Positions 488 to 62,587 are shown, counted from the stretch's first letter. The stretch is 64,000 nucleotides of DNA from a virus (IMGVR_UViG_3300033066_001528:59913-123912), one strand, 5' to 3'. The notes: generated by a model not told the origin, from the letters alone. Program-made: numbers and translations.

Positions 488-1129
488 ATGTTCACCCCTA
501 CGAAAAATGCCCCGTTCCAACTGGCAACGGACACCATCATGTACAAACCTGGGAAGGGTAGTGGGAATGGTGACATGGATGATATCGCCAACACCCTCGG
601 ACCTAAGTCCAGGAAGGTTCTATTTTCGCGCGGGACCACCGTCACATGGAACGGCGTTCGATCTGGTGGCCTTCTCGTTGTCATCGTGAAGCTACCCCAT
701 GGCGGATCCATCGGGTGGTATGGGGTCAATGAAAAAGACCTAGAACCGCCTGTTCGGTCTCTACGATCGTCCATCATTCGTCTGGCTCACGCCAACCCTA
801 AACTCAGGGGCGACCTACTGCCGCTACTCAAAGAGGCCGCAGTGAGAAAAACCATGACCAGGGAACAGATCGAGGGCATGGGAGCCGCCGTGATCAACAA
901 GGCTTTGGACACCCTCGACAAAGAGCAGAGCAAACTCAACGGCGCCCTCATCGAGGCGGGGTTCGGGCACGTTAGGCTCCAGGAGATCATGAGGATGGAC
1001 CACCCTGTGGCCCAGCAGTATGCCGTGGTGTCGGGTCAGATCGCCCTCCTCCACGAGGAGATCGAGCGCCGCTATGGTCCCGGTGCCCCCTCCAGACTCC
1101 CACGTGGGTTTGGCCCGATCAAGCGCTGA
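488..1129 (+). CDS. Hypothetical protein with an internal copy of the shared leader motif
   Basis: 213 aa; residues 91-118 SLRSSIIRLAHANPKLRGDLLPLLKEAA. Confidence 0.8.
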   Translation: MFTPTKNAPFQLATDTIMYKPGKGSGNGDMDDIANTLGPKSRKVLFSRGTTVTWNGVRSGGLLVVIVKLPHGGSIGWYGVNEKDLEPPVRSLRSSIIRLAHANPKLRGDLLPLLKEAAVRKTMTREQIEGMGAAVINKALDTLDKEQSKLNGALIEAGFGHVRLQEIMRMDHPVAQQYAVVSGQIALLHEEIERRYGPGAPSRLPRGFGPIKR

Positions 1130-2387
1130 GAAAAGCCCTTAGCCTCTCTCGAACGGCCTCCGGATCTCGTTTGAGTTCTCCCTCCCACACCACCAGACAC
1201 TGGATGCCAATATCTGCGTAGGCATCAATGAGCTCCTGCTCGTGGTCAAATGGTGCCCTGCCCGTGAACATACGGGAGTGCCAAAAATCCCCAAATGCCT
1301 CAACTACTTTGGTCACCCCCTTCTTGGGGTTCTCCGGGTCTGGACCTGGGAGAATGAAATCAGGGTTCTTGTGGTGGTTGAGTTTTGGGAGCCATTTCCA
1401 ATAGGAAAAATCGCCAGTATATGAAAGGATTGGAGCAAGAGCGTGCAACCGTTGCTCAAACTTGTTGGGTCCATTTTTTGTGCGACCAAGCTGAAATGGA
1501 TAGGAAAAATCGGGATGGTTGAGTCTAAAGGTTGTGAGAGCTTTTTTCCAGAAACCATCGATCTGGGAAGGGAACGCCACACCATATCGCTCCATCAAAA
1601 CTGCACGAACCTCCCGTTTCCCCTCATCACTGGCAAAATAGTATTCGTTCCCGTACCTAGCTAGAACCGTGTCCAACTGGCGACGCCTCACACCTGGGTC
1701 CTGGTTCGTCCAATCAACACCATATCGGGCAAGGTTGGTCTGGCGAATGCGTTCAACCACTTCAGGGGTGCGAGCGGGTTCCGTGGTGCCGTACCGGGCA
1801 AGATTGGTGTTGTTGACCTTCTCCCGAATAGTTGGGGAGCGCATGAGCTCTCCCCCATACCTATCCGTAGTAGTCTCCCGAGTGCGCTCTCGGATCTCTG
1901 GTACCTGTTGAGGGTTCTCCGCTCCGTACTTGGCAACCATGGACTGACGGACCTTCTCCTGGACTTCCGGGCGGGAGAATGGATTGTCGCTACCTTTGAG
2001 GATTGGACGCTTCCCTTCGAGGGAGTCTTGAACCTTCTGGAAAGTGCTAGCTCCCTTGGCAAACGGGTTCTCCGCCCCATAACGCTGAAGGTTGGTTGCC
2101 TTGCGACGTTCAACAACCTCGGGCGCATGGGTTGGGTCCTCAACCCCATATCGGACCAGTGAAGTGGCAGACCGCTTGGCCAGAGACTCTGCCTTAGCCG
2201 TTTCAGGGTCGCGAGATTGCCACAGGGAGCAATCTCGTTTGTGGCGTTTCATCTGAGTCCCAGAGGTGGAAATGTGACCACAAACACACGGATCGGGCGA
2301 TAGCGCCTTTGGCCACCCAGGACAGATGGCCTTGTGTCTGGAGGTGATGGAAGGGAGGGGTTTCTGGCAGTGTGGGCAGAGGATCAT
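1119..2387 (-). CDS. Putative free-standing homing endonuclease (Zn-finger N-terminus, RYG repeats, Vsr/DUF559-like nuclease C-terminus)
   Basis: CPHC...HKAIC and CVCG...HKRDC; repeated T(N)LxRYGxxxP units; C-terminal NPDF...VVEAFGDFWH...LVVWE. Confidence 0.75.
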   Translation of the reverse strand: MILCPHCQKPLPSITSRHKAICPGWPKALSPDPCVCGHISTSGTQMKRHKRDCSLWQSRDPETAKAESLAKRSATSLVRYGVEDPTHAPEVVERRKATNLQRYGAENPFAKGASTFQKVQDSLEGKRPILKGSDNPFSRPEVQEKVRQSMVAKYGAENPQQVPEIRERTRETTTDRYGGELMRSPTIREKVNNTNLARYGTTEPARTPEVVERIRQTNLARYGVDWTNQDPGVRRRQLDTVLARYGNEYYFASDEGKREVRAVLMERYGVAFPSQIDGFWKKALTTFRLNHPDFSYPFQLGRTKNGPNKFEQRLHALAPILSYTGDFSYWKWLPKLNHHKNPDFILPGPDPENPKKGVTKVVEAFGDFWHSRMFTGRAPFDHEQELIDAYADIGIQCLVVWEGELKRDPEAVRERLRAFLSA

Positions 2388-2407
2388 ATCCCCGTTACGC
2401 CAAAACC

Positions 2408-2440
2408 GTAGACAGAGGGGGATGTGACCCCTCTGCCTAC
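2408..2440 (-). terminator. Probable intrinsic terminator
   Basis: 13-bp stem (one G-U pair on the minus-strand RNA), 7-nt loop, followed by GGTTTT, just after the stop at 2448. Confidence 0.55.
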
Positions 2441-2447
2441 AGAGAGG

Positions 2448-4240: not shown

Positions 4241-4246
4241 GGAAGG

Positions 4247-4835: not shown

Positions 4836-5126
4836 CTAGTCTTTCTGCGTGACATATTTGAGAAGGTCCCTCAGCCGACCCTCAAGAGCCTCTGACTCCC
4901 CAATTGCTCTTTCTACCACGCTCGCCCCAACAATCCCACCTAAAAGTTTCTGGTCTTCCTTGAGGGATTTTGTGGTCTTTTCTTGATTGGATAGTGCCTT
5001 TTGTGCTGCTCCCTTTGCTTTAGCAAAGTCACTATCCACTGCTTCTTTAAGCAATGGGAGGAGATCCTTGCGGAGCTCAGGATTAGTGTGGGCCAGTTTG
5101 ATGATCGATGAGCGTAGGGATGACAT
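4836..5126 (-). CDS. Small helical protein with the shared N-terminal leader
   Basis: MSSLRSSIIKLAHTNPELRKDLLPLLKEA followed by a coiled-coil-like body. Confidence 0.8.
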   Translation of the reverse strand: MSSLRSSIIKLAHTNPELRKDLLPLLKEAVDSDFAKAKGAAQKALSNQEKTTKSLKEDQKLLGGIVGASVVERAIGESEALEGRLRDLLKYVTQKD

Positions 5127-5150
5127 ACCTACACTGAGAATAAAAAGTAT

Positions 5151-13000: not shown

Positions 13001-13576
13001 TCAGTGTCCAGCGTTTGCCGGAGTCTGATAGGTGGAACCCCCGGAAAACGGATGAGCCCACATATAGCTCTTCAGAGAGCACCCACCGTGAACGACCTTT
13101 CGAGCGTGAATCTCGGATGAGACGAAACGGGTAGGATCCGGGGCCACACTGGAATCACCCGTAGACCGAGAGGCGATCTCGCGAAGGTGCACCATCTTCC
13201 CGGTAACCTTGACGACGACGTAGAAGTCCACGTTGGTCTGCTCGTAGCCCCAGGAACACGACCAGATGTCACCGACCTTGATGGTCGCCAGCAGGGCAGC
13301 AGCCTCAGTGGCCTCATTAGCCTTACGGTGGGCCTTATCGTGCGCCGCATTCAGAGCATTCTGCACAAGCTGATCCTTGGCTTCCTCCCGCTGGGTCTCC
13401 GTCCGGTAGTAGGTGTTCACGAACGGCTTGGTCTGCTTGCCCTGGAACGCGACCAGAGCATAGGTGCCCCGACCCGTAGTATAGGAGTGGAGCTCCAGGT
13501 TCGTACCCGCGGGGGTCTCGGTGACGACCTGGACGTTACTGGGGACGTAGAAACTACGGGGAAGTGCAAACTTCAT
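13001..13576 (-). CDS. Hypothetical phage protein (probably early class)
   Basis: VGDIWSCSWGYEQTNVDFYVVV motif; strong AAGGAG RBS; GC3-rich codons. Confidence 0.8.
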   Translation of the reverse strand: MKFALPRSFYVPSNVQVVTETPAGTNLELHSYTTGRGTYALVAFQGKQTKPFVNTYYRTETQREEAKDQLVQNALNAAHDKAHRKANEATEAAALLATIKVGDIWSCSWGYEQTNVDFYVVVKVTGKMVHLREIASRSTGDSSVAPDPTRFVSSEIHARKVVHGGCSLKSYMWAHPFSGGSTYQTPANAGH

Positions 13577-13639: not shown

Positions 13640-15199
13640 TCACCACCGAAACATACGGTAAATTTCCTCCTCCACGTCGTCCTGGATATACTCCAATTGG
13701 AATACCCGCTCGATCTCCTTGAGCTCGTCTACCAACTTCTGATCCTTCGGAATGCGCCACCCCACGGACCCTGGGATGTTGTTGATCGACCAGTCATCTC
13801 CATCGTGGCCATTGTTCCGCACGAACCACAGGGCATCGGGTTCCGCTACAAACCAGTTCCCACCGCCATAGGGGATGAACTTCTCACCCGTCGTACACAG
13901 ATGGTCTCCCTTGGGGTGATGGCCGAGTTGCGGGGTTTCACCGTGCTGGCGGACGTATTTCTCGATATCATCCCTACGCTTGGATGCCTTGAGCTTGAGC
14001 TCCCGGAGCTTGCGCGCGGCCGTCTCCTTGGTCTCGAAAGTGGCAGCGTCCTGAGGTTGGGGTGGACCCGCGTAGATGGTGTGCATCCACCCACGGTCAT
14101 CACTCAACCCGAAAGACAAACCATCCTCAGGGTAGTACTGAGACTTGACATCCAGTACCGTCAGAACCTTCCCGGACTTTCGATCGCGGAAAACGTGACC
14201 GACCGGGAAATGGTCCCCACGAGCACGACCCTCCTGATAGATGATCACAATCCCCTTCCGCTCCCGTTCCAGACGAGCCTGCTCTGCTTTCTCTGCCCTC
14301 TCCCGCTCTTCTTTGATGTGACGCTCTGCAACCACCTTGGCAGCGGCTGCCTCCATCTCAGCTTTGAATTCTAGGATGGATCTCTTTGAGGTCTCATCGG
14401 GCATACACCACGCCCTAGCATCTGCATCCCACAGGCCACCGAGGTCTCTCGCCTTGTCCTTGAGCTCGAACGGGATAACCACACAGAGCTTTTCCTGTTT
14501 CCGACGAGCGATCTCCCGTTTGGCTACTGCCGCAGGCACGTTATCCGCCAGAACCTTCACTGCATCATAGGATGACTGATCCGGCATGCACCAAGTTTTG
14601 AACGTGTCATCCCAAAGGCCACCGAGGTCTCTCGCCTTGTCCTTGAGCTCAAAAGGAAGGGGGATACACCACCCTTTGGTCCGTCGGTTGAGCATCTCCT
14701 CTTTGATGAGGTCACCCTTGGAGCGAGTGTCCCCACCGCCACCCTCAATATAAGGCGCTACCAGTTTCTGGAGATTCTTTCGTTTGAGTGGGGTGAGATT
14801 CCGAGCAGGCGTAGACCACGTGCGACTGCTGGAGTCATACTCGAAACCCTGACTCTTCAGTCGCTTGTTGATGTGGTCAATCATGATGTGCGCCGGACCC
14901 GACACGTAGACAATCCCATTGGCTTCATCTACCTGAACATGCTTCGGGTTGGGCCGTGGGACAGGCTCATCTCTGGGGATGGAAGAACCGCTATTCAGGT
15001 TCTCTACCAGTTTCTCCAGCCACAGTTTTTCCGTGGGGGTAGCCTCGGCAAAAGCCCACTTGGACCCGTCAACGGTTCGATCAGAACGAATGTAACCCCC
15101 CATCCCTTTGAGAGTGAGCTTGAGCTGATCGATACGTCGAGAGGGATCCGTCAGGAAAAGACGACCCGTTCCAGCTTCTTCCAGTGTTGCCAATGCCAT
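13640..15199 (-). CDS. Protein with two tandem DUF5710-like domains
   Basis: PFELKDKARDLGGLWD....WCMPD occurs twice, 61 aa apart. Confidence 0.7.
   Translation of the reverse strand: MALATLEEAGTGRLFLTDPSRRIDQLKLTLKGMGGYIRSDRTVDGSKWAFAEATPTEKLWLEKLVENLNSGSSIPRDEPVPRPNPKHVQVDEANGIVYVSGPAHIMIDHINKRLKSQGFEYDSSSRTWSTPARNLTPLKRKNLQKLVAPYIEGGGGDTRSKGDLIKEEMLNRRTKGWCIPLPFELKDKARDLGGLWDDTFKTWCMPDQSSYDAVKVLADNVPAAVAKREIARRKQEKLCVVIPFELKDKARDLGGLWDADARAWCMPDETSKRSILEFKAEMEAAAAKVVAERHIKEERERAEKAEQARLERERKGIVIIYQEGRARGDHFPVGHVFRDRKSGKVLTVLDVKSQYYPEDGLSFGLSDDRGWMHTIYAGPPQPQDAATFETKETAARKLRELKLKASKRRDDIEKYVRQHGETPQLGHHPKGDHLCTTGEKFIPYGGGNWFVAEPDALWFVRNNGHDGDDWSINNIPGSVGWRIPKDQKLVDELKEIERVFQLEYIQDDVEEEIYRMFRW
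14433..14650. repeat. 35-bp perfect direct repeat, period 183 bp
   Basis: AGGCCACCGAGGTCTCTCGCCTTGTCCTTGAGCTC at 14433-14467 and 14616-14650. Confidence 0.9.
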
Positions 15200-17361: not shown

Positions 17362-18243
17362 TCAGCGAGTGACGGTGAGGCGAACGAGACCCTTGGGGTT
17401 GTAGGCCCCAATACCGAGGTTCTCGAACATTGAGAAACCGATGGTGCGAGCCTTTGGATCGTCGGCACTCAGGACGGTCAGTTCGGTACGAACGGGGATA
17501 CGGCCAAACATCTCCGGTTCGCAACACACGTACACCGTTCCTGCGGGAACGAGACGCGAGGTGATAACCTGGGCTCCCCAGAGGGTAGCCTGAAGTCCGG
17601 TCTTGAGGAGAACAGCCTGCGATTCAATGTCGAGAATGTCCCGACCGAACTTACGGATGTCCGCGTAATCCCGTGCGTTCATAAAGACGCGCGCAACCCG
17701 GAGGTCATGCCGCTCAATGAGTGCCCAAGCGTCAGCGAGAACTGCACCGTTAAGCGGAGCTACAACGGGGAGGTCTGGGTTGGTTCCACCAGGAACGCTA
17801 TCAAATCCGTTAACGGCGATAGCGTCAAGGACACCGAAGACACGTATATCTTCAGCGGCCTGAATGGAAGCCCGACCCAAATCTTGAGCGCGCTCGATCA
17901 AATCGAATCGACGCTCACGGATCTGGGTTAGTGGGATCTCTGGGTTCGAGGCAAGCTCAAACAGAGGGAAGATCACACGTCGTGGCTTGGTGATGGCGAG
18001 GATGTTCTCCCCTTCCTCACCGACCACGTATGCGGTTACATCCGGATCCTTGTCGTAGATTGGCAGAGCCCCATCGGGGAGCTGTTCAACCAGGAAGGTC
18101 TTTCGACCAACGGACATATAGTCCCGACGAAGACGGAGTGGCTGAGTCATAGAAGCTGCCAGCTTCTGACGACCGGCTGCTGTCCGGATGAAGTCACCAA
18201 TCAAGGCTTGCTTGTTGGCGTTCTCAACATTAGGGTTAGTCAT
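17362..18243 (-). CDS. Major capsid protein (HK97 fold)
   Basis: 293 aa following protease, scaffold and decoration genes; LIERAQ...IQAAED, VFMNARDYADIR, LWGAQVITSRLVPAGTVYV, GAYNPKGLVRL; followed by a terminator. Confidence 0.85.
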   Translation of the reverse strand: MTNPNVENANKQALIGDFIRTAAGRQKLAASMTQPLRLRRDYMSVGRKTFLVEQLPDGALPIYDKDPDVTAYVVGEEGENILAITKPRRVIFPLFELASNPEIPLTQIRERRFDLIERAQDLGRASIQAAEDIRVFGVLDAIAVNGFDSVPGGTNPDLPVVAPLNGAVLADAWALIERHDLRVARVFMNARDYADIRKFGRDILDIESQAVLLKTGLQATLWGAQVITSRLVPAGTVYVCCEPEMFGRIPVRTELTVLSADDPKARTIGFSMFENLGIGAYNPKGLVRLTVTR

Positions 18244-18286: not shown

Positions 18287-18961
18287 TCAGATCCTCTGAT
18301 CGTACACGATCTCGGTCTGTACCGAGTCCGGGGCCATCTTCAGGATGCCAATGACCGTGGAAGCGGTCGAACCACCCGCAACTTCTGCGGCGTTGTTTGC
18401 AACGTCAACCGTCACCCAAGCGCCACCGGAGAAAACTCTGGAAGGCATTAGGTAACCGTTGCGGCTTGCAATGAGACGGGAACCCGCCGTATAGGTAAAT
18501 GCCGTACCAGCCGCAACACCACCCGTGAGGGCTAGGGTGTTGGTCTCATACAGCTTGTTCCCATAAGTTCCGCGAGCGGAAACATATGGTCCTTTGCCGG
18601 AAGCGGCAGCGGGAAGATTCTCATAAGCGTTCCCGCTCGCGTTGTTAATGAAAACACCGAGGGGGTTGATGAGAGTTCCGTCTACAGGAAGAACGAGACC
18701 CGCTTCGCGGGGCCCGCCAACGAAGTTCGTCCCGGCATCGGGACGAGAGAAAGCCACGGATCCGGAGAGAACTCCGAAAACTTCCGTAAGCGCACCGGGA
18801 GATGTCGAAACAGTTCCGGCAGTAGTAACAATTGGCGGGTTGGTCTGCGTAAATGCATCAGCAGTCAGAATCCCTACGGAGTTGCGAACACCAACGTAGA
18901 GAATCCGAAGTGCCGAAGAACTTTCGGTCCAAGCACCGCTAGCCTGTCCAAGCAAAGGCAT
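18287..18961 (-). CDS. Head decoration/cement protein
   Basis: Lies between scaffold and MCP; Gly/Ala/Thr-rich with PLGVFINNA...ASGKGPYV...YET. Confidence 0.7.
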   Translation of the reverse strand: MPLLGQASGAWTESSSALRILYVGVRNSVGILTADAFTQTNPPIVTTAGTVSTSPGALTEVFGVLSGSVAFSRPDAGTNFVGGPREAGLVLPVDGTLINPLGVFINNASGNAYENLPAAASGKGPYVSARGTYGNKLYETNTLALTGGVAAGTAFTYTAGSRLIASRNGYLMPSRVFSGGAWVTVDVANNAAEVAGGSTASTVIGILKMAPDSVQTEIVYDQRI

Positions 18962-19158: not shown

Positions 19159-20595
19159 TCACTTGAAGATTTCGCTGATGTTGGGAGCGGACTCCCAAAG
19201 CTTCGAGAGATTTTCCACGTCACGATCCGCGACAGCCGTTGGGACCGAACCAATGGCGCGAACACCATTGCTAGCCTTACGTGGCTGTGGCCTTACGGCA
19301 GCGGTCTTGTTGGAGCGGGCTTCTTTAGGTGTCTTCTCCTCTGCCTTCTCTTCCTTTACGTCGGATTTGGCAGCAGCATCTTCCTTCTTCTCGTCATCTC
19401 CGGCAAACTTGCTGCCGTAGAGGGAGTTGAGCTCCATGTCATCGAAACCACCATCATCAACGAGACCCATTGGGTCCTCATCAATTACCACGTCCTCATC
19501 CACAACGGGAACACCATCGAGTACCGCATCATCAGCTAGCATGTCATCGAGCATCGCCTGCTCGTCGTCGCCCAGCATAGCTTCCTTGGCATCCTCCTTA
19601 GGGGCATCTTCCTTCAGCATTTCTGCCAGGAGAGCTTCGTCCTCGTCATCCTCATCCGAAGCCGTCATACCCTCATCAAGCATGGCCGCCAAAAGAGCCT
19701 CATCCTCATCATCTTCGGACGCACCCTTAGTCTCTTCGTCCAACATCGCAGCCAAAAGGGCTTCGTCCTCATCCCCAGCCAGATCCGCTAGTTTCCCCTG
19801 TTGACGGTAATTATAGTGCTTGGGGTCATTCTGGTCCCCGGGCATATCGGATGCCTTGCGTGAACGGGACCGTGCTTCCTTCTTGGTTTCGGACTTGTCC
19901 TCATCCTTGCTATCGGACTTGTCCTCATCCTTATCCCATTGCTTCTTAAAAGCCTCGGGAACCTCCCCGGCGGCTTTCGCAACACGAGTCCAATACTTAG
20001 CAAGACGTTGGAAGCGAGCTGCCTTCTTACCAGCAGTTTCCTCACCGGCTTCATCCTCATCGTCAGTATCTTCGTCTTCGTCAGCCTTTTTAGAAGAGGT
20101 CTTATCCTCGTCCTCTTCCACCATAAGGTCATCGGCTTCCTTGCCCTCTTCCTCGTCTTCGGCAAGGCGCTGAAGAGTGGCCTGGATCTGACGATCTGGG
20201 AGACTCATGAGATCAACGGCCTGATCTTCAATGGCAAGTTGAGGGGCACCCTGACCCAGCATGGCGCTAGCAATTCGAATGCACTTTGCAGCCTTCTTCT
20301 CCATCGCCTTAACGAGGCTAGCGGAAACACCACGTGGGAAATAGTGCTTTGGATCGGTGGCCGGATGGCCTTGAGGCTCATCGGTGCCAGGAAGAGCAGG
20401 GTGAGCGCTGTTCGGGTAAGGACCTTTGGTTGGGTCCTCCGCCCAGGAGGACGTGTCACCGTTCTCGTAATCATGAGGGCCGGGATCCTCATAAGCTGCA
20501 GGATGGTCTAACGTCTCCGGCTCATTATAGCCAGGAGTTGCTGGACCGGGGGAAGCTTTGCGATTGGTCTTGGCCCAGGTAAGTCTGGTTCTCAT
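19159..20595 (-). CDS. Capsid scaffolding protein
   Basis: Highly acidic, repeated DEDEALLAAML units, many K-x-A sites; ATG at 20595 overlaps the protease stop (ATGA). Confidence 0.75.
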   Translation of the reverse strand: MRTRLTWAKTNRKASPGPATPGYNEPETLDHPAAYEDPGPHDYENGDTSSWAEDPTKGPYPNSAHPALPGTDEPQGHPATDPKHYFPRGVSASLVKAMEKKAAKCIRIASAMLGQGAPQLAIEDQAVDLMSLPDRQIQATLQRLAEDEEEGKEADDLMVEEDEDKTSSKKADEDEDTDDEDEAGEETAGKKAARFQRLAKYWTRVAKAAGEVPEAFKKQWDKDEDKSDSKDEDKSETKKEARSRSRKASDMPGDQNDPKHYNYRQQGKLADLAGDEDEALLAAMLDEETKGASEDDEDEALLAAMLDEGMTASDEDDEDEALLAEMLKEDAPKEDAKEAMLGDDEQAMLDDMLADDAVLDGVPVVDEDVVIDEDPMGLVDDGGFDDMELNSLYGSKFAGDDEKKEDAAAKSDVKEEKAEEKTPKEARSNKTAAVRPQPRKASNGVRAIGSVPTAVADRDVENLSKLWESAPNISEIFK

Positions 20596-22043
20596 TTGAT
20601 TTCCTTCTGTTTCCCGTCGGCAAGCCGACTTTGATGTGCTGACATGACGGCTCCAATACGAATGATAGATTTGATTTCCGGTGATGTGGGTGCCCTGTTT
20701 AGGGCTTTGCCGCAAGCATCCAGAAATTGTTGGAAGCTACCATATCGATTAGAGGGTCCAACCCGTAGGGCGGCCGAATAGACAGTTTGTGGAACTGAAA
20801 TACCAAAAACGGTATTAAGACCCTCTACCCGCCTCACAACATCGGCTGTTGTTTTAGCCGTAGCTACAATCATCCTAAGAGAAGACCGATAGAGCCCACC
20901 CTGTTTGATGATAGTGTCATTGGGTGAATCTGAAGAAGGTATAGAAGGTACTGGACCCTGTAATTGGTCCCGCACCCGCTTCTTAACTCTATCCACAAGA
21001 GCGTTAGTTAGCTCCGTCTCCGCGTCATCAAGGATCCCCTTGGATGGCTTAGGTGATTCCTTTTTCTCACCATCCAAATTGGCGGGCTCCCCAAATGGGT
21101 TCTCGTCCGGCTGGTACCCCTCATCCTCGGACCCAATCTTCAAATCCCGAGCTACTTTCTGAAAAGCCGTATGGACCACTTCGGGAGGGGCGGTGGTAAA
21201 AATCTTCTCCAAAAGGGCAGCGGTACGAGCCGAGTCTTTAGAGCTTATTGAAATAACATTCCGTGCCACAGCCCCTTTGAAGGCCGGGACTTCCACCCAG
21301 GAAGCCTCAATAAATTTAACCCCTCCGGTGGGCTCAATTCCCTCATAGCCGCAGAGCTCTGCAATTCTGTGCTTCCGACCCGACTCATCAAAAAAAGTAT
21401 TGCCCTTCTCGTGAAGAACATGTGTACACATTTCGGTTTCATCGGCCGCCCAATTACCGCATTTTGTGCATATGGAGCCGTCAATCGAGCAACCCATTGA
21501 AAGAGTGCTAATTCTCCCGCTCTCTATGTCTTCAATGAGTTGAGTATGCTTTCTGTCATTCGCGACGAGAATGTCAACATATAGGCTGTCACCTATATCT
21601 CTAGCAACGGCATCAAGGATTCTCCCCTTGGAGAGCTCCTCAATCTGGACATGCTCAAGAAACGAATGGCCACCGATGAAAGTTGGATAAGACTTGAGGA
21701 GGACAGGACGGGAGAAAGCATCAAGGTTGTTGTTGATGTAAATATCACACTCTGGCTTCACCCGATAGGAAGCGGTTTTACGAACAACCTTTTTTCCCCC
21801 AACAACAATAGACCCAATCTTCTCTCCCGGCACGGCTACTGTGTCTACGCTTGCGACAATAGTAGCGTGTGTCAGAAGGTACTTCGAGGGGTCAAATTCG
21901 GAGCCGAGAATTTTAGAGGCTTGGGTGACAAGATTGCGATCGGCTCTAACTTTTCCGCTAGCCACTCGAATATTGTCCCAACCCCCGTTGTTGAGATTGG
22001 TGGTTTTGACAACTCTTGCATTTGCATATCGCAGAAAAGGCAT
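20592..22043 (-). CDS. Prohead (maturation) protease with a Zn-binding insertion
   Basis: SFLEHVQ...SKGRILDA...LSMGC (His/Ser catalytic pattern), CTKCGN...CTH, FIEASWVEVPAF; directly upstream of the scaffold. Confidence 0.8.
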   Translation of the reverse strand: MPFLRYANARVVKTTNLNNGGWDNIRVASGKVRADRNLVTQASKILGSEFDPSKYLLTHATIVASVDTVAVPGEKIGSIVVGGKKVVRKTASYRVKPECDIYINNNLDAFSRPVLLKSYPTFIGGHSFLEHVQIEELSKGRILDAVARDIGDSLYVDILVANDRKHTQLIEDIESGRISTLSMGCSIDGSICTKCGNWAADETEMCTHVLHEKGNTFFDESGRKHRIAELCGYEGIEPTGGVKFIEASWVEVPAFKGAVARNVISISSKDSARTAALLEKIFTTAPPEVVHTAFQKVARDLKIGSEDEGYQPDENPFGEPANLDGEKKESPKPSKGILDDAETELTNALVDRVKKRVRDQLQGPVPSIPSSDSPNDTIIKQGGLYRSSLRMIVATAKTTADVVRRVEGLNTVFGISVPQTVYSAALRVGPSNRYGSFQQFLDACGKALNRAPTSPEIKSIIRIGAVMSAHQSRLADGKQKEIK

Positions 22044-22586: not shown

Positions 22587-25500
22587 TTATAGATAAAGAC
22601 TAAAAAGGGAAGCTACCTTTTCCGCTTCATCGGACTCATCCGCTTCAGCAGCCTTCTCGTCTTCCTCTTTCTTCTCATCTTCCGCAGCCCTCCTGGACTT
22701 GGAAGCCTTCTTCTCTTCCTTTTTGTCCTCGGGCTTCTCTTCCGCTGCGTCAGACTTGTCACTCTCTTTTTCGCCCTCTTCCATTTCGGCAAGAACACGA
22801 AGAGTGGCTTCTTTCACAGCCTTGTTAAGAAGAGCCGCAAGCTTAGGATCCGCCTTATGTGCCGCCGCATTAGAGGCAAGCGACCCTGATTCTTGTTTGG
22901 CGTCGAGTTGCTCGAAGTTGGCTTGGGTGAAATGACCTGCCATAAACTTCTGGGAAGGATCGTTTACGAGGGGGCCAGGAACCTTCTTCCCAATCGTAGA
23001 AGCATCAAATTGACCCTTCTTCTGGAGGAAATCGGAAACCCTGTCACAACGTTCCGCCATATCCATGGCGACCTTTGGGTGAATGCCAAGAGCTTCGTGA
23101 TGCTCCTGGAAGAGAGTGGCCACGTTATCAAGTGTAGCAACAACGCGCCGAATACCTTCTGCTGATGCCTTTTTCTTCATGATTTGGTTCCTTGAGATAG
23201 GGAGTACCATCCGATAGCTTGGACGAATAGTCGAATGATTGAAAGCCATAATTTTCTTGCCGCGCATCTTCATGAGTTGAAGAAGCCACCACGGAGTTTT
23301 CCCCTTGCTGGATCCTGGACCATTAGGGGTTTTTCCCCCTTTAGACCCTGGTACCTCGTCTCCCGGCTCACCCTCGGCATCGGCATCATTCAGGATAGCA
23401 TTAACCACACTTTGCCGTAAAAAAGCTGCCTGTTCATTAGAGAGGGCCGAACGACCACCCTTAGCCGGATCCTCATAGACCCCCGATTTCAGGGGCCCTA
23501 ACATATCTTTCACTCTGTCCGGAGCATAGTCCTCTAAAGTGGCAACAAAATCATCGTCACTCATTGCCGCCATAGCATTATGAACTGCCTTCCGATATTT
23601 AGGAGACTCGGGACCCTCGGCCAGATCAAATATATAGTTGGACCCAGGGTCCACTTTACGAAGAGCCTTCACTAACCCCGTAGTCAACCCTTTTTCTCCC
23701 CGTAGATGTTTGGAGACTTTCAGAGCCGACAACTCATCCGCCAAATCCTGACGTTGAGACTTCAAGTCATCGGATACCTCATCCCCGGCTTCCTGGATCT
23801 GCTTGTCTAAAGCAGCCAGATCGGATTCCAGTTTACCGCCAAGGGTATCTACAATATCTGGAGGAAGATATTCAAACTTATCCAAAGCCCTATGGCGAAA
23901 CCCATCCCCCTCGTCCTTTTTTCGAGTCAAAGGGGATGTCATTTTTGCAAGCACTGACAAAGCGGCATGGTGCCTTGCAACACTTGCGATAATATCCTCA
24001 TTAGCCTTATCCAGCTCTTTACGGGCATCGTCCAAACCATCGTAAGTCTCCTGGGCTTTTGCCAAGTCGTCTTGAGCTTCCTGCAAGTCCTCTTCAGAAG
24101 ACTCATATTTGGATTGCATGTCCTGAACCAACTTCTGAAGCTTCTTCAACCGTCCTTTCACGGCATCGGTGTTTTTACTTTCCTCATCCAGGAGGTCGTC
24201 TACCTCCTTCTGAGTTGTTTTCAGCACATCCTCGGCTTCTTTCAAGTCATTAAGAGCTTTGTCCCGACGTTGCTGAGAGGACTGAAATGCCTTCTTAGAC
24301 TTTTTGAGTTGGGATTTAGCCCCCTCGATCTCTTTGTGGAGACTATCCCTATCCCGGATGGCGGTTTCAATCTCCTTCTTTGATTTTTCGGGGGAGAAAC
24401 CCTCTTTCCCCAACCATTTTACAACGGAACGAAAGTCCCCAGTGTCCAAGGCTCTTGCAACGTCGTCTTGGGCTCTTTGGCTTTCTTCTTTGATGGCATC
24501 AACCACCCTACGCCCAAGATCGGGATCCCCATCCGATACTTGACCGTGAAGCTTCTGCAAATCTCTGGCATCCTCTACGGATAGTCCTTTTTTAAGGTCA
24601 CCAAGGTCCCGAGACCCATCGTCTCCCTTTGGTTTGGGAGCATCCTTTTTAGGTGAGTCCCCGTTACCGGAATCCTTTTTGTCACCAGATGAGTCACTAT
24701 CCTTAGGGGGGGAACCATCCGGGGTTTTGTCCCCCTTTCCTTTGGTGTCACCATCGTCAGACTCACCGTCATCCTTTTTAGGATTTTTCACGGAGTGGTT
24801 TTTTGGGTCAGCGTCTGGATGGTCCTTAAGGTAGGCATCCAAATCCTCCTGCGTTGGAAACTCCAATGCTCGAAGATATCGTGAAGCAACCCTTTTATAG
24901 TTGAGACTTAGATCCCTATCCTCGCTAGATGTGTCCGGGTCACTATCTACAATTTGATGTTTTTGAAGGTCCTTACGGGGTGGCTTTTTCTTCGGAGCAG
25001 AGTTGACCATATCCGCGACTTGGTCATCCTCTTTCTCAGCCTGAGTCTTTGTCCCGTAAACAAGAACTGATCCCTTCTTATTCAGTTCCTTAAGGATGGT
25101 ACCATCGTGGACGTAGGACTCTTCTAAGTTGGGAACAAGATACTGGCTCTTAAGGGTTGATGCCCCGTGCCCAACAATCTCAGCCACGGTCTCCAAAGCC
25201 TTTTTGAACTCGGCCTTGAGAATCTTATCTTTCTCTTTTCGATCACGTGGTAGGTTCTTGGGGCCATTTTTCCGCACTTCGGTCAGAGCCTTACACATTT
25301 CCTGGTTTGCCCTGAAACCGCGGATATCCTTAGCCGTGATGTCAAACTCTTTAAGGTAAGCGTTGACATCCTCTGGATCAACACCCACATCACCATCCTC
25401 CAAGAGACGATCCGTACCTTTCTTTCCCTTAAGGGCCTTTTTGAGAGCCGTTAAAGTTGGGCCGGATTCAACAACTTTCTCGTGATCTACGCCTGATTTC

Positions 25501-25880
25501 CCAACATACGTGATCGTGGCTTTGTCGCCTCTAACTTTAATATGATCCGCGGTCCACCCTGTCACCCCATAATGACCATCCTCTGCACTATCATGGTTAC
25601 CAACGCGCTCCATTGTGCAGTCCATAAGGGCAACGGCCAAAGCCGTAAGTCTCTTGTGTGGGTCTTCACAAGTCAAATCCTTTTTGACTTTTGCCCGTAA
25701 GTCAGAAATACTCTTACGGAGACCCTCCACTCTGTCAGCCTTTTCTCGATTCCTATTGGAAACCTGACGGTCGGAATAGACATAGACAATTGTCTCTCCC
25801 CCGTCCTGGGACTTGACCTTCTTCTTTTCTTTGTACTGGGCGTACCGAAGGGCCACCACTGCTGATAGGGGAATACCCAT
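22587..25880 (-). CDS. Type IB DNA topoisomerase domain fused to a long coiled-coil and an acidic C-terminal module
   Basis: Catalytic set ERVGN (R), YVGKSG (K), KDIRG (R), VGH (H), SQYL (Y) in the first ~260 aa. Confidence 0.85.
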   Translation of the reverse strand: MGIPLSAVVALRYAQYKEKKKVKSQDGGETIVYVYSDRQVSNRNREKADRVEGLRKSISDLRAKVKKDLTCEDPHKRLTALAVALMDCTMERVGNHDSAEDGHYGVTGWTADHIKVRGDKATITYVGKSGVDHEKVVESGPTLTALKKALKGKKGTDRLLEDGDVGVDPEDVNAYLKEFDITAKDIRGFRANQEMCKALTEVRKNGPKNLPRDRKEKDKILKAEFKKALETVAEIVGHGASTLKSQYLVPNLEESYVHDGTILKELNKKGSVLVYGTKTQAEKEDDQVADMVNSAPKKKPPRKDLQKHQIVDSDPDTSSEDRDLSLNYKRVASRYLRALEFPTQEDLDAYLKDHPDADPKNHSVKNPKKDDGESDDGDTKGKGDKTPDGSPPKDSDSSGDKKDSGNGDSPKKDAPKPKGDDGSRDLGDLKKGLSVEDARDLQKLHGQVSDGDPDLGRRVVDAIKEESQRAQDDVARALDTGDFRSVVKWLGKEGFSPEKSKKEIETAIRDRDSLHKEIEGAKSQLKKSKKAFQSSQQRRDKALNDLKEAEDVLKTTQKEVDDLLDEESKNTDAVKGRLKKLQKLVQDMQSKYESSEEDLQEAQDDLAKAQETYDGLDDARKELDKANEDIIASVARHHAALSVLAKMTSPLTRKKDEGDGFRHRALDKFEYLPPDIVDTLGGKLESDLAALDKQIQEAGDEVSDDLKSQRQDLADELSALKVSKHLRGEKGLTTGLVKALRKVDPGSNYIFDLAEGPESPKYRKAVHNAMAAMSDDDFVATLEDYAPDRVKDMLGPLKSGVYEDPAKGGRSALSNEQAAFLRQSVVNAILNDADAEGEPGDEVPGSKGGKTPNGPGSSKGKTPWWLLQLMKMRGKKIMAFNHSTIRPSYRMVLPISRNQIMKKKASAEGIRRVVATLDNVATLFQEHHEALGIHPKVAMDMAERCDRVSDFLQKKGQFDASTIGKKVPGPLVNDPSQKFMAGHFTQANFEQLDAKQESGSLASNAAAHKADPKLAALLNKAVKEATLRVLAEMEEGEKESDKSDAAEEKPEDKKEEKKASKSRRAAEDEKKEEDEKAAEADESDEAEKVASLFSLYL

Positions 25881-25910: not shown

Positions 25911-26258
25911 CTAGAGACTGAGATCAATTCGGTATCTAAACAAAGCGTCCGGACGCTTTGCAAAAGTAATGGACCCACCTTCGCCCATATCATAAACAAT
26001 CACCGATCCACCATTGGCGACATTTGAGGACACCTGTTTGAACCCCAAAGCCTTCACCGTTTGAAGGACACGAACGAAAGAAGCGGTGACATTCCCCTCC
26101 CAATGAGCTTGGTTCGATTCCACAATAGTCCCCACGGGGAATTCTAGTGTTTTCAAGAACTCATGGGTGAGGGAGGAGGTTTTGAGTAGGGGTAAAAGGT
26201 GTGGCCTAAGGGAAGGTTTTTGGTAAGCCAATCGAATAAGGTTAGATCGGAGAGTCAT
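25911..26258 (-). CDS. Small protein with the shared N-terminal leader
   Basis: MTLRSNLIRLAYQKPSLRPHLLPLLKTS. Confidence 0.8.
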   Translation of the reverse strand: MTLRSNLIRLAYQKPSLRPHLLPLLKTSSLTHEFLKTLEFPVGTIVESNQAHWEGNVTASFVRVLQTVKALGFKQVSSNVANGGSVIVYDMGEGGSITFAKRPDALFRYRIDLSL

Positions 26259-27376: not shown

Positions 27377-28003
27377 TCATCGTCTCGTATTGCGTGTCAC
27401 ATAATTGCCAACAGCATAAGACAGGTCTTCGAAAGCAGACCTCAATTTCTCCCGAGCATCTTCTACCTGTTCGATCTCCTTGAGTATTTTTGGATCCATG
27501 GTTCCGCGAACATCCTGTAAGTATTGAAAAGTGGCTCCGGAGAAACTCTGGTACAGCCTCTTAAACCGAGATTCGGAAGAAATCAAATCAGCAAGGGACC
27601 CGGCGAATTTTTCCATGAATACATTGATCTGCCTTCTCATGGACACAAGGCTAGCGTTATAGGCCGTAGGCACCCGACCCCCGGTCTGATCAACGTTACG
27701 TTTGAAGATTTCTAGGACTTTATCAAGGTCACTGTTTGCCTGGATCAAAAGCTTCCTGACATCTTGAAGATTATCCTCATCAATGTCGGCAAGCCCCACT
27801 AGCCCATCCAGCCCTTTACGGAACCCTGACCCATAGGCATCCACGTATTCCAAAATACCGGAGGATGAAAGGGACAACATCCGAACGGAATGTACGAGAT
27901 CATCTTCGGCATCCGAAGACTTTTTCAAAATCGGTAGTAGATGGGGCCGAAGCTCCGGATTAGAACGGGCTAGTTTGATAAGCTTAGAGCGGAGAGAAGG
28001 CAT
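27377..28003 (-). CDS. Helical protein with the shared N-terminal leader
   Basis: MPSLRSKLIKLARSNPELRPHLLPILKKS (start 28003). Confidence 0.8.
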   Translation of the reverse strand: MPSLRSKLIKLARSNPELRPHLLPILKKSSDAEDDLVHSVRMLSLSSSGILEYVDAYGSGFRKGLDGLVGLADIDEDNLQDVRKLLIQANSDLDKVLEIFKRNVDQTGGRVPTAYNASLVSMRRQINVFMEKFAGSLADLISSESRFKRLYQSFSGATFQYLQDVRGTMDPKILKEIEQVEDAREKLRSAFEDLSYAVGNYVTRNTRR

Positions 28004-28207
28004 ACCCCCCACAGGCTATTGCAAAAAAAACGTCAGGAGTTGGAGGCCAACAAACCGATAACCAACCTCGGTGCCTATCCGTGGTAGGGGTCGATTTAAA
28101 TACCCCTATATCCGAATTCGCTAAACCAATTCTCAAACTTGGTTGGATGTTCTCCAACCGAATTAAGTTGGACCGGAGGGAAGACCTAACGTCGTCCCGG
28201 TATCAAC

Positions 28208-31200: not shown

Positions 31201-31495
31201 GACCAACAAAAGGATCGTAGGTATAAAAGTGGCGGAAAAAATTCCGCTTCTCATCAATAGATTGAGGGAGCTCTAAAAAGTCGGTGCTTAATTGAGGACT
31301 ATAGAAGTTGCCACCCATACCCCCAACGGTGTTTCCCGTGGAGGGGTACGCAACTTTAGAGCGAAGCTTGTCTGTGGCCACCCTACGGGGCCTACCATTC
31401 TGAACGTGCTTCTTTGGAGGTATCTTCGCTACCTCCACTGCCTCTTCGGATGGCTTTGGTCTCCCGTTATGGATTATTTTCTTGGGGGTAGTCAT
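28208..31495 (-). CDS. Portal protein with an intein
   Basis: Downstream of TerL; DPFVGQAVDLHTELPLSK, HGHSILER|CL, LYAGLGVTESLLSGE; about 573 aa after splicing. Confidence 0.85.
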   Translation of the reverse strand: MTTPKKIIHNGRPKPSEEAVEVAKIPPKKHVQNGRPRRVATDKLRSKVAYPSTGNTVGGMGGNFYSPQLSTDFLELPQSIDEKRNFFRHFYTYDPFVGQAVDLHTELPLSKIRLGMPKAKNRDIALKSLDFCTKWAKKVGLLHRLIEIVHDYHLLGEVWVFAEDTSPDMPESVTHETIQELDANGDPTEKKVPYPDADERAEKWLRRNYKGWTALRVMPPEQIHMEAFPFTDEVLVQLIPDSKTKDIVNRAIAGDENAERIVRSMPQDVVGAIVEGGNIPLNTDPDAGSFVYCMARKKSQYEPHGHSILERCLLPGTPVTIERDGVIQEVPVEGVDTATDLLLTHKGRFQPATKGSRPVDETVTHLYLEGEETPLRLTSDHKVLCVRGDQDVWLESGKLQPGDTMLESHVIPEGPPPTEINLSHWWQGRTLTTQPRRSPIRTLTVQSVSTDNGLSVTFSYPNDHKSIGKAKRKKQSLATWLTNLTESTVATYQEVANQTGLTRSTVILYANQLRETHGLRTEEIILQDSPRGKGKSTRWYPMGDALTPPSPKTVTYTSPVNTIPLDEAFCYLLGTWLGDGDVWTTTDGLNVASIGWTFGKGDPQLHALVLKLATLYFGAAIIEPPYGTGTKQSNLSVRFKDQLLARWFLDTMGGDCTTKRIPRWVFDLPEGHILALLRGVLDTDGYLSHGRQSVISVTLDNHNLIHQLHLLCNRVGIPTHTRWTHKKAHSWTRRWWSKVKNDWVEKTYEYPDKSFPVLECTRYEGVRKWAERGSIKGSRIQWREVNGWKSRFRSGFLTRKVEKIDSVPYTGDVYSFDVKGDHSLVTSKVMIKNCLHTLVYRDKLRQSQTSIASRHMTPIRIVMAEGASADQLDEVREQVDYALQDPDYSIIVNFELRWEEMGSQQRLLELSTEYEITDRQLYAGLGVTESLLSGESSYSGDRINLEVINTRYMLLREELQDMVQNKLLEPMCRRMGFIEVDEDGNEEVITPTLSFTRLALRDNSDTFDALFNLYQKGSLDVDVILELLNIDPLTTSEKLKRDVLTLQDSSFNEVLRGLYSEVGRALAENTDVVGKIAGYLGLKYKPKEEEPEGRF
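28997..30562 (-). mobile_element. Intein (522 aa) with LAGLIDADG endonuclease and an HTH insert
   Basis: CLLPGTPV...LTSDHKV...YLLGTWLGDG...LRGVLDTDG...VYSFDVKGDHSL...IKN|C. Confidence 0.9.
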
Positions 31496-59253: not shown

Positions 59254-59276
59254 GATTCAACCTTCCCGAACTAGTA

Positions 59277-61631: not shown

Positions 61632-61653
61632 TGGCAATATTTACGCCCGTGAG

Positions 61654-62310
61654 TCAACGAGACCGGATTGCCATGCGTACCACAAATCGAAGGGCATCAA
61701 CATCCTTCATGTATTCCTTCAACCTAGCTTTAATTTTAGCTTTAGAGGCTGATCGAACACCTTTAGCAACCCCCAACTGCTCACAAGCAACTAGGGCCTC
61801 TTCTCTCCATAAGAACTTGAAAACATTCACCCATCGCAGATCAGGGTTTCGTTTTGCTTCCCGATAAACTTTTATGTTGACGGCCCCATCCGTTTGCCCC
61901 TCGACCAGAAGAACACCCCACCAATCAGGAATCTTTTGGAGGGACTCTTCCAAAAGATTCCGCCCCACTACCAAGGTCACCTTATCCCCCATCGCACTGT
62001 AAGCAGTCACCTGTCCTTTTCGGTTCCAGGTCTTCTTCCACCGCTTGGAGAAATGTGTACGGTCCCCTAATCTAAGGGTGGTGTCAACGTCAGACTTGAT
62101 TTCGTAGATGTGTAGTTCTGTATCGGTGATTGTCAGTAAATCGGCGATACATCCATTGACACCCATCTCGTGACGAATCCAAATTCGCTGGTGGTTAGAA
62201 CGAATGTAGGAATCAAGAGCTGGGCGAATGTCTCGGTCGCGGAGGATCAAAGGCACGAGATTTCTCTGGCAACAATTAGTTCTCCGCAAGACGCTGGAGA
62301 AGAAACTCAA
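61654..62310 (-). CDS. sce7726/MmcB-like PD-(D/E)XK protein (start uncertain)
   Basis: RHEM...IADLL...YEIKSDVDT..RL...QV.AYS...IPDWWGV. Confidence 0.7.
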   Translation of the reverse strand: MSFFSSVLRRTNCCQRNLVPLILRDRDIRPALDSYIRSNHQRIWIRHEMGVNGCIADLLTITDTELHIYEIKSDVDTTLRLGDRTHFSKRWKKTWNRKGQVTAYSAMGDKVTLVVGRNLLEESLQKIPDWWGVLLVEGQTDGAVNIKVYREAKRNPDLRWVNVFKFLWREEALVACEQLGVAKGVRSASKAKIKARLKEYMKDVDALRFVVRMAIRSR

Positions 62311-62587
62311 TCTGCTTGGCCTGGGATTTCATTTTGGAAAGAATATCTACGTATAGAGCCGCCCGATTCCTTTCACTCTCATCTTTTGGAGACGCCACAA
62401 CGCTTTTATATTCCCCAAGAGCCACGGAAATAGAATCATCAAAAAAACCAAATGAGGAAGCAACCTCAGATTTGTAAGCCGGATCAGCGTATCTACCCGA
62501 AGCCCTCTTAAGCAGTGGGAGGAGATCCTTTCGAAGTTCCGGGTTCTGATGGGCCAATTTGATTATCTTTGATCGTAGATTGGACAT
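62276..62587 (-). CDS. Small helical protein with the shared N-terminal leader
   Basis: Start refined to 62587: MSNLRSKIIKLAHQNPELRKDLLPLLKRAS. Confidence 0.8.
   Translation of the reverse strand: MSNLRSKIIKLAHQNPELRKDLLPLLKRASGRYADPAYKSEVASSFGFFDDSISVALGEYKSVVASPKDESERNRAALYVDILSKMKSQAKQIEFLLQRLAEN

Follow-up and report, generated by a model that had tools for sequence, protein, structure and literature searches.

Why should unrelated proteins of a single virus carry the same short peptide? The question is raised by a 64,000-nucleotide stretch (here called the window) of a 123,912-bp viral contig, in which an initial annotation had recognized eight copies of a leader-like motif. All eight were found again and all are in frame: the residue preceding L-R-S lies at position 758 on the forward strand and at 5120, 5705, 11259, 11833, 26255, 27997 and 62581 on the reverse strand. 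In seven of the eight copies an ATG stands 1–3 residues ahead of the motif. The copy at 758 is internal, as had been reported: it begins at residue 91 of a 213-aa ORF (488-1129, +) and has no in-frame start codon close upstream.

The peptide, henceforth the tag, is about 25 residues long and has the consensus x-LRSKLIRLAH-x-NP-x-LR-x-HLLPLLK. About five of its residues are basic and about 11 hydrophobic, giving a net charge of about +4; an N-P turn and a second proline are invariant, and a Ser/Thr and a His/Tyr are almost so. The features of the window on which the following sections draw are given below (bit scores are those of the profile described in the next section; G001 and G002 are two related phages).

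758..835, +: tag copy A, internal, residues 91-116 of ORF 488-1129 (+); HMM 59 bits
4836..5126, -: tagged gene B, 96 aa; tag 5043-5120; 63.5 bits
5391..5711, -: tagged gene C, 106 aa from the ATG at 5711; tag 5628-5705; 61 bits
10954..11265, -: tagged gene D, 103 aa; tag 11182-11259; 60 bits
11288..11839, -: tagged gene E, 183 aa; tag 11756-11833; 62 bits; directly 3′ of p373 (synteny)
13001..13576, -: p191, untagged here; homologues tagged in other phages
13640..15199, -: p519, two DUF5710 domains, untagged here; a 44%-identical homologue (L046) begins with the tag
17362..18243, -: HK97-type major capsid protein, 85–89% identical to the G001 and G002 proteins; candidate receptor
18287..18961, -: decoration-like protein; synteny with phage G gp26
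19159..20595, -: scaffold-like protein, acidic, low-complexity, untagged; between the protease and the decoration and capsid genes
20592..22043, -: head maturation protease (phrog_18299, 6e-11); syntenic
22587..25880, -: 1097-aa head-module protein with an N-terminal topoisomerase-IB-like domain
25911..26258, -: tagged gene F, 115 aa; tag 26178-26255; 57 bits; portal-protease interval
27377..28003, -: tagged gene G, 208 aa; tag 27920-27997; 58 bits; first gene after the portal gene
about 28131..28181, -: decayed tag, first half, in the spacer between portal gene and gene G; 14 bits, i-E 0.004, HMM positions 1-17
28208..31495, -: portal protein, split by a LAGLIDADG intein-like insert
62276..62587, -: tagged gene H, 103 aa; tag 62504-62581; 63 bits

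Conservation of the peptide

An HMM built from the eight window copies was run on the six-frame translation of the whole contig. This search beyond the window, which the initial annotation had proposed, returned 13 copies scoring 36–64 bits (E 1e-10 to 1e-18), a number far above chance expectation, as well as the decayed remnant immediately 3′ of the portal gene. Among the 13 copies identity at the first, second and third codon positions is 0.61, 0.82 and 0.33, the 60-nt flanks are only 0.27–0.29 identical, that is, random, and 69% of codon pairs specifying the same residue use different codons. Together these values show that it is the peptide that is conserved and not a DNA repeat, in agreement with the selection on the peptide that had been claimed. 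A repeat acting at the DNA level (a promoter or 5′ cassette, a recombination site or the end of a mobile element) that happens to be translated might have been suspected from the frequent arrangement of tagged genes in tandem arrays and variable slots, and from the presence of a decayed copy. Such an origin is, however, refuted by the codon analysis, and copies also occur inside ORFs and at ORF 3′ ends; we give it practically no chance of being correct.

The bodies that follow the tag are unrelated to one another, as previously stated (best pairwise BLASTP E = 0.8). The reported K-x-[AGS] ending holds for the window copies, and in 234 further instances it appears as a tendency, 109 of them having K at +0 and 141 having A or S at +2. 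Composition also tends towards K-x-A ahead of internal tags and K-[KE]-A-A behind tags. No conserved Glu cleavage motif was found at the tag. The flanking K-x-A/S may or may not mark a protease site, and the Ser/Thr/Asn before L-R-S is equally explicable as a helix cap. Upstream of tagged genes the motif [AG]ATA[GA] is weakly enriched (6 of 12, versus 13% of other genes); a promoter search in the same regions gave no clear common late-promoter motif.

A discrete, position-independent module

The tag had been described as an N-terminal leader. This description is too narrow: in the 150 best database matches, every one of them a multi-copy protein, 182 instances are internal, 116 N-terminal and 54 C-terminal. 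Where the tag is C-terminal, the protein stops 0–8 residues past its end. Multi-tag proteins carry 2–6 tags joined by K/E/D-rich low-complexity linkers; G001 contains no such ORF, G002 contains one and the present contig none. Presence of the tag also varies among related proteins. One tagged enzyme-like protein is 56% identical to an untagged paralogue in the same genome, the tag being a clean 29-residue N-terminal addition, and homologues of p191 in other phages are tagged, including at the C-terminal end of multi-tag proteins. The clean addition, the tagged homologues of p191 and p519, and the C-terminal copies that finish where the tag finishes define, at the level of sequence, a discrete module with sharp boundaries that is independent of position and that has been both gained and lost on orthologous cargo.

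Removal of the tag by the prohead protease, also part of the original proposal, fares less well. As a general mechanism it does not fit C-terminal or repeated tags, since a C-terminal tag has nothing downstream to release, and head-protease cleavage of the tag in general is unsupported.

AlphaFold2 predicts two helices for the tag, which would form a two-helix hairpin, in keeping with the helix-turn-helix suggested earlier. In a tagged 245-aa protein, for which Pfam and PDB searches returned nothing, the tag helices are H4-14 and H16-27 (pLDDT 75–84) and the body is not folded (pLDDT 33). A natural protein of 63 aa that consists of two tags is modeled as four helices (pLDDT 85, pTM 0.63).

The tag is without a described family, as the initial annotation had supposed: there is no match in Pfam, the PDB or the literature. 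Pfam returned nothing over the tag at E ≤ 1 and, on 126 proteins, a sub-threshold DUF6193 in two only; the best E in a PDB profile search with the tag was 6.5; Foldseek found nothing in the PDB at E ≤ 0.001 for the two-tag model; the ESM Atlas gave no usable match for the tag; and the tagged proteins received no family from PHROGs or Pfam. When the tag region of gene G was used in a word-index search, it matched the gene G protein itself and nothing else. LRV repeats were considered and rejected: their spacing is different and that Pfam family occurs in just one of the 126 proteins. A known DNA-binding or oligomerization domain had been named as the kind of match that would tell against capsid targeting; no DNA-binding or membrane family was matched.

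Phages, cargo and gene neighborhoods

The tag profile retrieved 3,546 representative protein clusters at E ≤ 1e-3, and all ten of those whose source was looked up are metagenomic. IMG/VR contains 128 distinct tag instances in 78 loci. The relatives G001 (485 kb) and G002 (497 kb), which are 92–94% complete, carry 11 and 23 copies, respectively; no tag was found in the cultured relatives Bacillus phage G and Tunturi_5. As far as sampled the tag is phage-restricted, and in the sequences examined it belongs to one clade of uncultured huge phages with 10–23 tagged genes per genome. Several tag-bearing contigs encode the same capsid-protein lineage (a putative match). The tag itself is extremely conserved among phages whose other proteins are 44–70% identical, and the capsid protein is 85–89% identical between phages with replication proteins that are 44–64% identical.

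Few of the 91 single-tag ORFs have any Pfam match. The domains present are ART-PolyVal (three), RelA_SpoT, DUF5710, DUF2958, WGR and pentapeptide repeats. One ART-PolyVal cargo reaches 47.6 bits, where the cut-off is 31.2, and a tagged 425-aa protein of the present genome is homologous (E 2e-66) to a protein, P0120, that passes the RelA_SpoT cut-off (30.5 against 27). Pfam gave no polymerase, terminase or ribosomal-enzyme family above chance on 217 tagged proteins, and PHROGs no tail family on the 91 single-tag ORFs except for one weak tail-fibre match. No MuF or portal fusion was seen, and most tagged proteins consist of the tag and one small body. ART and RelA/SpoT domains are described as those of early-phase effectors that are packaged in the head and injected, as in T4 Alt and the MuF fusions (PMC5512222). 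The few nameable domains are thus of the types found in packaged, injected phage proteins (PMC5512222), which favors the diverse effectors originally envisaged as cargo. This effector picture would cover a small minority: it rests on about a dozen domain matches, and most cargo has no assigned function.

The statement that most tagged genes sit among head genes holds for part of the window only. Two copies (27997 and 26255) lie between portal and protease genes and two (11833 and 11259) beside p373, which in relatives occurs together with the capsid gene; the remaining four of the eight are not among recognized head genes. Certain slots are tagged recurrently, namely those directly after the portal gene, in the scaffold-decoration interval and around p373 downstream of the capsid gene. 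The post-portal slot occupied by gene G is also tagged in three other loci (L021, L022 and L075). In or adjoining the head module are 4 of the 13 tagged genes here, about 2 of the 11 in G001 and none of the 23 in G002; with the three genomes combined, placement there does not clearly exceed chance. Across the 78 loci, bona fide head genes occur within 3 kb of a tag in 15. No protein family is found within that distance in more than 15% of loci, the commonest neighbor being a PolyA_pol-type nucleotidyltransferase (12 of 78), and some tag clusters have kinase- and phosphatase-like genes nearby.

Two disordered proteins of the head module share short motifs with tagged proteins. The 1097-aa protein has a different short tag, R-V-A-x-R-Y-L, followed by Y-L-x-x-H-P-x-A-D, a motif that stands behind the main tag in other phages; it also contains F-M-x-G-x-F-T. 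The scaffold-like protein has 4–5 acidic amphipathic repeats and a motif, E-V-P-E-A-F, also found in multi-tag proteins. Elsewhere such short motifs occur at a fixed distance behind the tag; here they occur in these two proteins only. Among 120 homologues of the scaffold-like protein, none carries the tag.

A proposed destination for tagged proteins

Capsid loading is most plausibly the role of an address or docking tag of this kind. We assign a probability of roughly 0.4 to the reading that the tag is a position-independent docking module recruiting proteins into the prohead interior; in this reading, binding to a partner, the location of that partner in the prohead and injection of the cargo are inferred. 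Phages of the clade would append a basic amphipathic helix-turn-helix to any protein bound for one common site, the interior or core of the assembling prohead, and the tagged proteins would be enclosed with the DNA and released in the next host. Cargo so delivered would include ADP-ribosyltransferase-like and RelA/SpoT-like enzymes together with many small proteins of no assigned function, and the proteins that join 2–6 tags by charged low-complexity linkers may be multivalent bridges or an auxiliary scaffold. In favor of prohead docking we count the discreteness of the module, selection on the peptide, its distribution, the predicted fold, the type of cargo, the head-module slots and the precedent of T4. 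Against it we count the position of most tagged genes outside the head module, the unassigned state of most cargo, the absence of a clear late-promoter motif, the cultured phages G and Tunturi_5, which are without the tag, and the internal and C-terminal tags, which are unlike every characterized capsid-targeting leader.

[quoted passage not shown] Like the CTS of IPI-III and Alt, the tag is a short common peptide on unrelated proteins of one phage, with ART-type cargo. The T4 sequence is, however, 10–20 residues long, strictly N-terminal and cut at L/I-x-E by gp21, whereas the present tag is about 25 residues, is a predicted hairpin, occurs also internally, C-terminally and in multiple copies, and has no conserved Glu motif. 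The CTS bears no resemblance to the tag consensus, and tagged genes number 10–23 per genome as against about five in T4.

Similar in predicted architecture is the C-terminal coat-binding helix-turn-helix of the P22 scaffold, a basic domain of ~30 residues that suffices to bring fusions into an HK97-fold capsid. The AlphaFold2 model of the tag is likewise a small basic helix-turn-helix of comparable size; the two have no sequence relation, and the P22 module lies inside the scaffold, whereas the scaffold homologues here are untagged. Encapsulin cargo-loading peptides and the C-terminal tail of the HK97 maturation protease are also short and portable, and dock cargo on the inner face of an HK97-fold shell, but these are shorter, mostly extended and present once per cargo, in contrast to a helical hairpin with many cargoes and multi-copy forms. 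A different comparison is with polyvalent proteins and MuF fusions, whose ART-PolyVal, RelA/SpoT, DUF5710 and large-polyvalent-protein-associated domains phages deploy, probably by packaging and injection (Iyer et al. 2017, PMC5512222). That repertoire of effector domains is common to a small minority of the present cargoes. Polyvalent proteins are one giant polypeptide or a MuF fusion, whereas here separate small genes bear a common tag; by analogy, the tag system would be a ‘distributed’ version of the polyvalent-protein idea.

The multi-tag proteins allow another explanation, in which the capsid is uninvolved. Were hairpin to pair with hairpin in a four-helix bundle, the tag would be a self-associating sticker and the disordered multi-tag proteins would build a condensate or network, such as an assembly or replication factory in the cytoplasm, with single-tag proteins as clients. 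The many proteins in which several tags are strung on charged linkers would suit this, as would the compact four-helix unit predicted for the 63-aa protein, but an amphipathic bundle predicted from a single sequence is weak evidence. With a single multi-tag protein among G001, G002 and the present contig, moreover, there would be clients without a scaffold, and the types of cargo fit delivery to a host better than residence in a factory. We therefore regard self-association as unlikely; it would be compatible with prohead docking if the condensate were the prohead core. The idea that multi-tag proteins are the scaffold in other phages was also rejected: two of them (P0004 and P0011) lie in tagged-gene arrays by NUDIX/kinase-like genes and not between protease and capsid genes, and 0 of 120 scaffold homologues are tagged. 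Because G001 lacks multi-tag ORFs and G002 has one, and because the scaffold homologues are untagged, pairing of tags with one another is, on its own, less likely than a distinct receptor.

Amphipathic helices at protein termini often serve as anchors to membranes or DNA. The hairpin might attach to the inner membrane, to the nucleoid or DNA, or to a single abundant host protein, and many phage proteins would then gather there. The tag's basic and hydrophobic composition and the location of most tagged genes outside head modules are what such targeting has in its favor. The N-P turn and the second invariant proline, however, would break the continuous helix usual in surface-binding amphipathic anchors, the family searches returned no DNA-binding or membrane match, and the extreme conservation of the tag fits a conserved partner encoded by the phage no less well than one from the host; we rate a host structure lower still than self-association. 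Lower again, and in our judgment improbable, is recognition of the tag by one phage enzyme or chaperone (a kinase, a protease of timed degradation or a modifying enzyme), comparable to leader-dependent RiPP systems. The almost invariant Ser/Thr and His/Tyr and the kinase- and phosphatase-like genes by some clusters point in this direction. Yet no single family is found beside the tag in over 15% of loci, a count made within 3 kb when the enzyme may be anywhere in a 400–500-kb genome, and docking explains better than substrate recognition why tags recur in proteins that are otherwise disordered.

Prohead docking can be stated more fully, and then more tentatively: the tag may dock on an exceptionally conserved head component and in this way bring into each giant capsid 10–25 different proteins destined for injection, toxin-like enzymes and multivalent disordered ‘glue’ proteins among them. 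We consider this version possible although doubtful. A complex prediction for the capsid protein and the tag, run without control pairs, scored 0.00 against a mark of 0.32, a value that carries no weight for or against docking on the capsid protein.

Huge phages have capsid room for much protein, yet its contents and their selection are almost unknown, and nearly all of these phages are uncultured. If prohead docking is true, the injected proteome of thousands of huge phages would be readable directly from metagenomes and would be a rich source of anti-defense and host-takeover proteins. The tag would also be a portable means of loading foreign proteins into capsid-like particles, and the phages would employ a plug-and-play polyvalent strategy. 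Even without a capsid destination, a module of 25 residues that marks over 3,500 protein clusters, has no database family and implies a common partner would be a large piece of phage cell biology.

The tag and the genome that carries it

The window covers the right-hand 64 kb of a viral contig of 123,912 bp. This contig is part of the genome of an uncultured huge phage: its closest database record is the 485-kb uncultured phage LR745208.1, followed at greater distance by Tunturiibacter phage Tunturi_5 and Bacillus phage G. Nearly all genes of the window lie on the minus strand; they include terminase, portal, head maturation protease and an HK97-type major capsid protein, together with clamp, clamp-loader, UvsX-like and Dda-like genes of replication and recombination.

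All eight motif sites listed in the initial annotation were recovered, in frame. Seven begin 1-3 residues past an ATG; the eighth, at 758, lies inside the ORF at 488-1129 (+) and has no alternative start of its own. An HMM built from these eight returned 13 strong copies from the whole contig (36-64 bits, E down to 1e-18). Identity among the 13 is 0.61, 0.82 and 0.33 at codon positions 1, 2 and 3, the flanks are random (0.27-0.29), and 69% of the codon pairs that encode a shared residue differ. It is thus the peptide rather than the DNA that is conserved, as had been proposed, and the same observations exclude a DNA repeat. The bodies, that is, the remainder of each tagged protein, are as dissimilar as was first supposed (best E = 0.8 by BLASTP among them). 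The existence of the tag as a shared peptide module is firm.

Of 12 tagged genes, 6 (window 5126, 5711, 11265, 11839 and 28003; genome 50403) have the element [AG]ATA[GA] 12-45 nt upstream, compared with 16 of 119 other genes and 10% for random windows. The element also precedes the capsid gene and p519, an untagged gene of the window, and may be a shared promoter element. A separate hexamer, GCGTAA, is found 7-42 nt before nine gene starts in the contig, mostly of replication or endonuclease genes (examples in the window are 1119-2387, 50693-51685, 54097-55185 and 59277-61637), at ∼14 times expectation, and may serve in regulation or in the initiation of translation.

Distribution, position and predicted fold

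A scan of IMG/VR returned 78 loci with 128 distinct tag instances; the longest of the contigs concerned measures 497 kb. The tag occurs 11 and 23 times in two relatives of 92-94% completeness and is absent from phage G and Tunturi_5. Against 1.84 billion representative proteins the tag profile gave 3,546 matches at E <= 1e-3, of which 369 reached E <= 1e-10, and all ten of the clusters looked up came from metagenomes. Several tag-bearing contigs, as matched by their length, appear to encode the same capsid-protein lineage. No counterpart was found in Pfam, PDB, Foldseek or ESM Atlas and no description in a literature search, in keeping with the original view that the tag lies outside described families.

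The N-terminal position proposed at first holds for most IMG/VR instances, 96 of 128 being four residues or fewer from an ATG, but not for all: clear C-terminal tags occur, with the ORF stopping 0-6 residues past the tag, and some ORFs have two or three copies. The best 150 database matches are all multi-copy (2-6 tags each), with 116 N-terminal, 182 internal and 54 C-terminal instances. In such multi-tag proteins the tags are joined by low-complexity linkers rich in K, E and D, which hold further short conserved motifs; Y-L-x-x-H-P-x-A-D at +14 and C-E-K-L-P at +4 follow the tag at fixed spacing. One tagged protein is 56% identical to an untagged paralogue in the same genome, the tag being a clean 29-residue N-terminal addition, and p519 and its neighbour p191, untagged in the window, have tagged homologues in other phages. 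Since the tag is found at either end or internally, and is cleanly added to or missing from related proteins, it is a portable module whose boundaries are sharp, which orthologous bodies gain and lose, and which can work in any position.

AlphaFold2 predicts that the tag folds as a two-helix hairpin, in line with the helix-turn-helix first suggested: in a protein whose body was left unfolded by the model the tag forms helices at 4-14 and 16-27 (pLDDT 75-84), and a natural two-tag mini-protein gives four helices (pLDDT 85, pTM 0.63).

Tagged genes and the head module

Features of the window relevant to the head module:
32026-35208 (-), large terminase gene, with an insert matching LAGLIDADG_3 (8e-22) and Intein_splicing (1e-8)
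28208-31495 (-), portal gene, with a LAGLIDADG intein-like insert at ∼residues 313-703
28131-28181 (-), decayed half-copy of the tag (first half; by HMM), in the spacer between the portal gene and tagged gene G
27377-28003 (-), tagged gene G
25911-26258 (-), tagged gene F
22587-25880 (-), 1097-aa protein with an N-terminal match to a eukaryote/poxvirus-type topoisomerase IB catalytic core (PF01028, 4.8e-24)
24863-24893, 39515 and 10565 (-), and outside the window, second short motif R-V-A-x-R-Y/F-L/M, at N-termini and domain borders of other proteins
19159-20595 (-), acidic scaffold-like protein with 4-5 acidic amphipathic repeats of the type D-E-A-L-L-A-A-M-L
17362-18243 (-), major capsid protein, HK97 type (PF25209)
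13640-15199 (-), p519
13001-13576 (-), p191
11288-11839 (-), tagged gene E
10954-11265 (-), tagged gene D

On the minus strand the order is portal, G, p363, F, the topoisomerase-IB-like gene, p173, protease, scaffold-like, decoration-like and capsid genes, and beyond these p519, p191, p373 (which accompanies the capsid gene in relatives), E and D. G001, a near-complete relative, has the same head-gene backbone with tagged genes in other slots, one separating scaffold from decoration genes and one ahead of p373. The slot of the decayed half-tag holds an intact tagged gene in related phages, a sign that tagged genes turn over at this position. The portal insert is missing in the G001 homologue. 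Other intein- or endonuclease-like sequences were noted: within 2448-4747 (-), ORFs 2448-3368 and 3341-4240 have sub-threshold matches to PT-HINT (Hint/intein-like; 24.5 bits, cut-off 27.7) and to a TnsA-like endonuclease N-terminus (22.6 bits, cut-off 26.5), and a 650-aa ORF adjoining the capsid gene (15238-17190, -) has HNH, LAGLIDADG, HTH and DNA-methyltransferase-like matches, with homologous pieces flanking the capsid gene in relatives.

That most tagged genes sit among head genes was borne out only in part. Three slots recur across the 78 loci: one follows the portal gene, one separates scaffold from decoration genes, and one lies around p373. Bona fide head genes are within 3 kb of a tag in 15 loci; the majority of tagged genes, however, are located outside the head module, often in arrays, and enrichment near head genes, pooled over three long genomes, is not convincing.

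A second, indirect link to the head may come from the post-tag motifs of other phages, which in the contig's genome occur only in the topoisomerase-like and scaffold-like proteins. The former, which has a long disordered, coiled region after its catalytic core and keeps its position in G001 and in G002, a second near-complete relative, may be a virion-borne topoisomerase. Its post-tag motifs stand behind a different short tag: R-V-A-x-R-Y/F-L/M directly precedes E-F-P-T...H-P-x-A-D, where other phages have the main tag, which suggests that the two are interchangeable. Repeats of the scaffold type, 1-4 each, recur in 58 of 120 homologues of the scaffold-like protein and are a possible acidic counterpart of the basic tag.

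Conservation of the capsid protein is unusually strong: identity is 89% to the counterpart in G001 and 85% to that in G002, whereas it is 44-74% for UvsX, helicase, clamp loader, portal and protease. Identity is 85-99% in the best 120 of ∼2,000 matching clusters, and replication proteins of phages with this capsid lineage are 44-64% identical. The difference would fit constraint by many partners.

Cargo and proposed destination

Most bodies belong to no family. Pfam matches among 91 single-tag ORFs comprise ART-PolyVal (three, one above the curated cut-off), pentapeptide repeats, DUF2958, DUF5710, WGR and RelA_SpoT. A tagged 425-aa protein of the contig's genome is homologous to P0120 (E 2e-66), which exceeds the RelA_SpoT cut-off, and to P0030 (8e-57); its best PDB match, a weak one (E 0.04), is the secreted (p)ppApp synthetase toxin Tas1. 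Iyer et al. 2017 (PMC5512222) count ART and RelA/SpoT domains among early-phase effectors that are packaged in the phage head and injected, examples being T4 Alt and MuF fusions. Pfam returned no replication, transcription or translation enzyme families among 217 tagged proteins, and PHROGs no tail families among the 91 single-tag ORFs except one weak tail-fibre match.

We propose that the tag is a docking module that would bring its carriers to a common partner, with the prohead interior or core as the most likely destination (probability about 0.4). The tag could instead be a self-associating sticker, but multi-tag proteins are almost absent from near-complete genomes; because of this, and because none of 120 scaffold homologues bears the tag, a receptor distinct from the tag is more probable than pairing between tags alone. 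A targeting signal to a host structure is a further rival. Recognition by an enzyme is weakened as an explanation, since none of the gene families encoded nearby goes with the tag in more than 15% of loci. The commonest neighbour, in 12 of 78 loci (e.g., L035:20-2944), is a protein of 975 aa whose head domain is a nucleotidyltransferase of the PolyA_pol/CCA-adding type, and probably reflects synteny rather than a functional link. Removal by the prohead protease, also suggested initially, is unsupported, because the flanks on both sides show only a loose K-x-A tendency and C-terminal tags have no downstream part to release.

The tag may act like the T4 capsid targeting sequence, although the two have no common sequence and the tag departs from the defining N-terminal position and length. 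In predicted shape and charge it resembles the coat-binding helix-turn-helix of P22 scaffold, but that element belongs to the scaffold and the tag does not. Its cargo domains overlap the polyvalent-protein repertoire; in contrast to polyvalent proteins, the tag system spreads these domains across many tagged genes.
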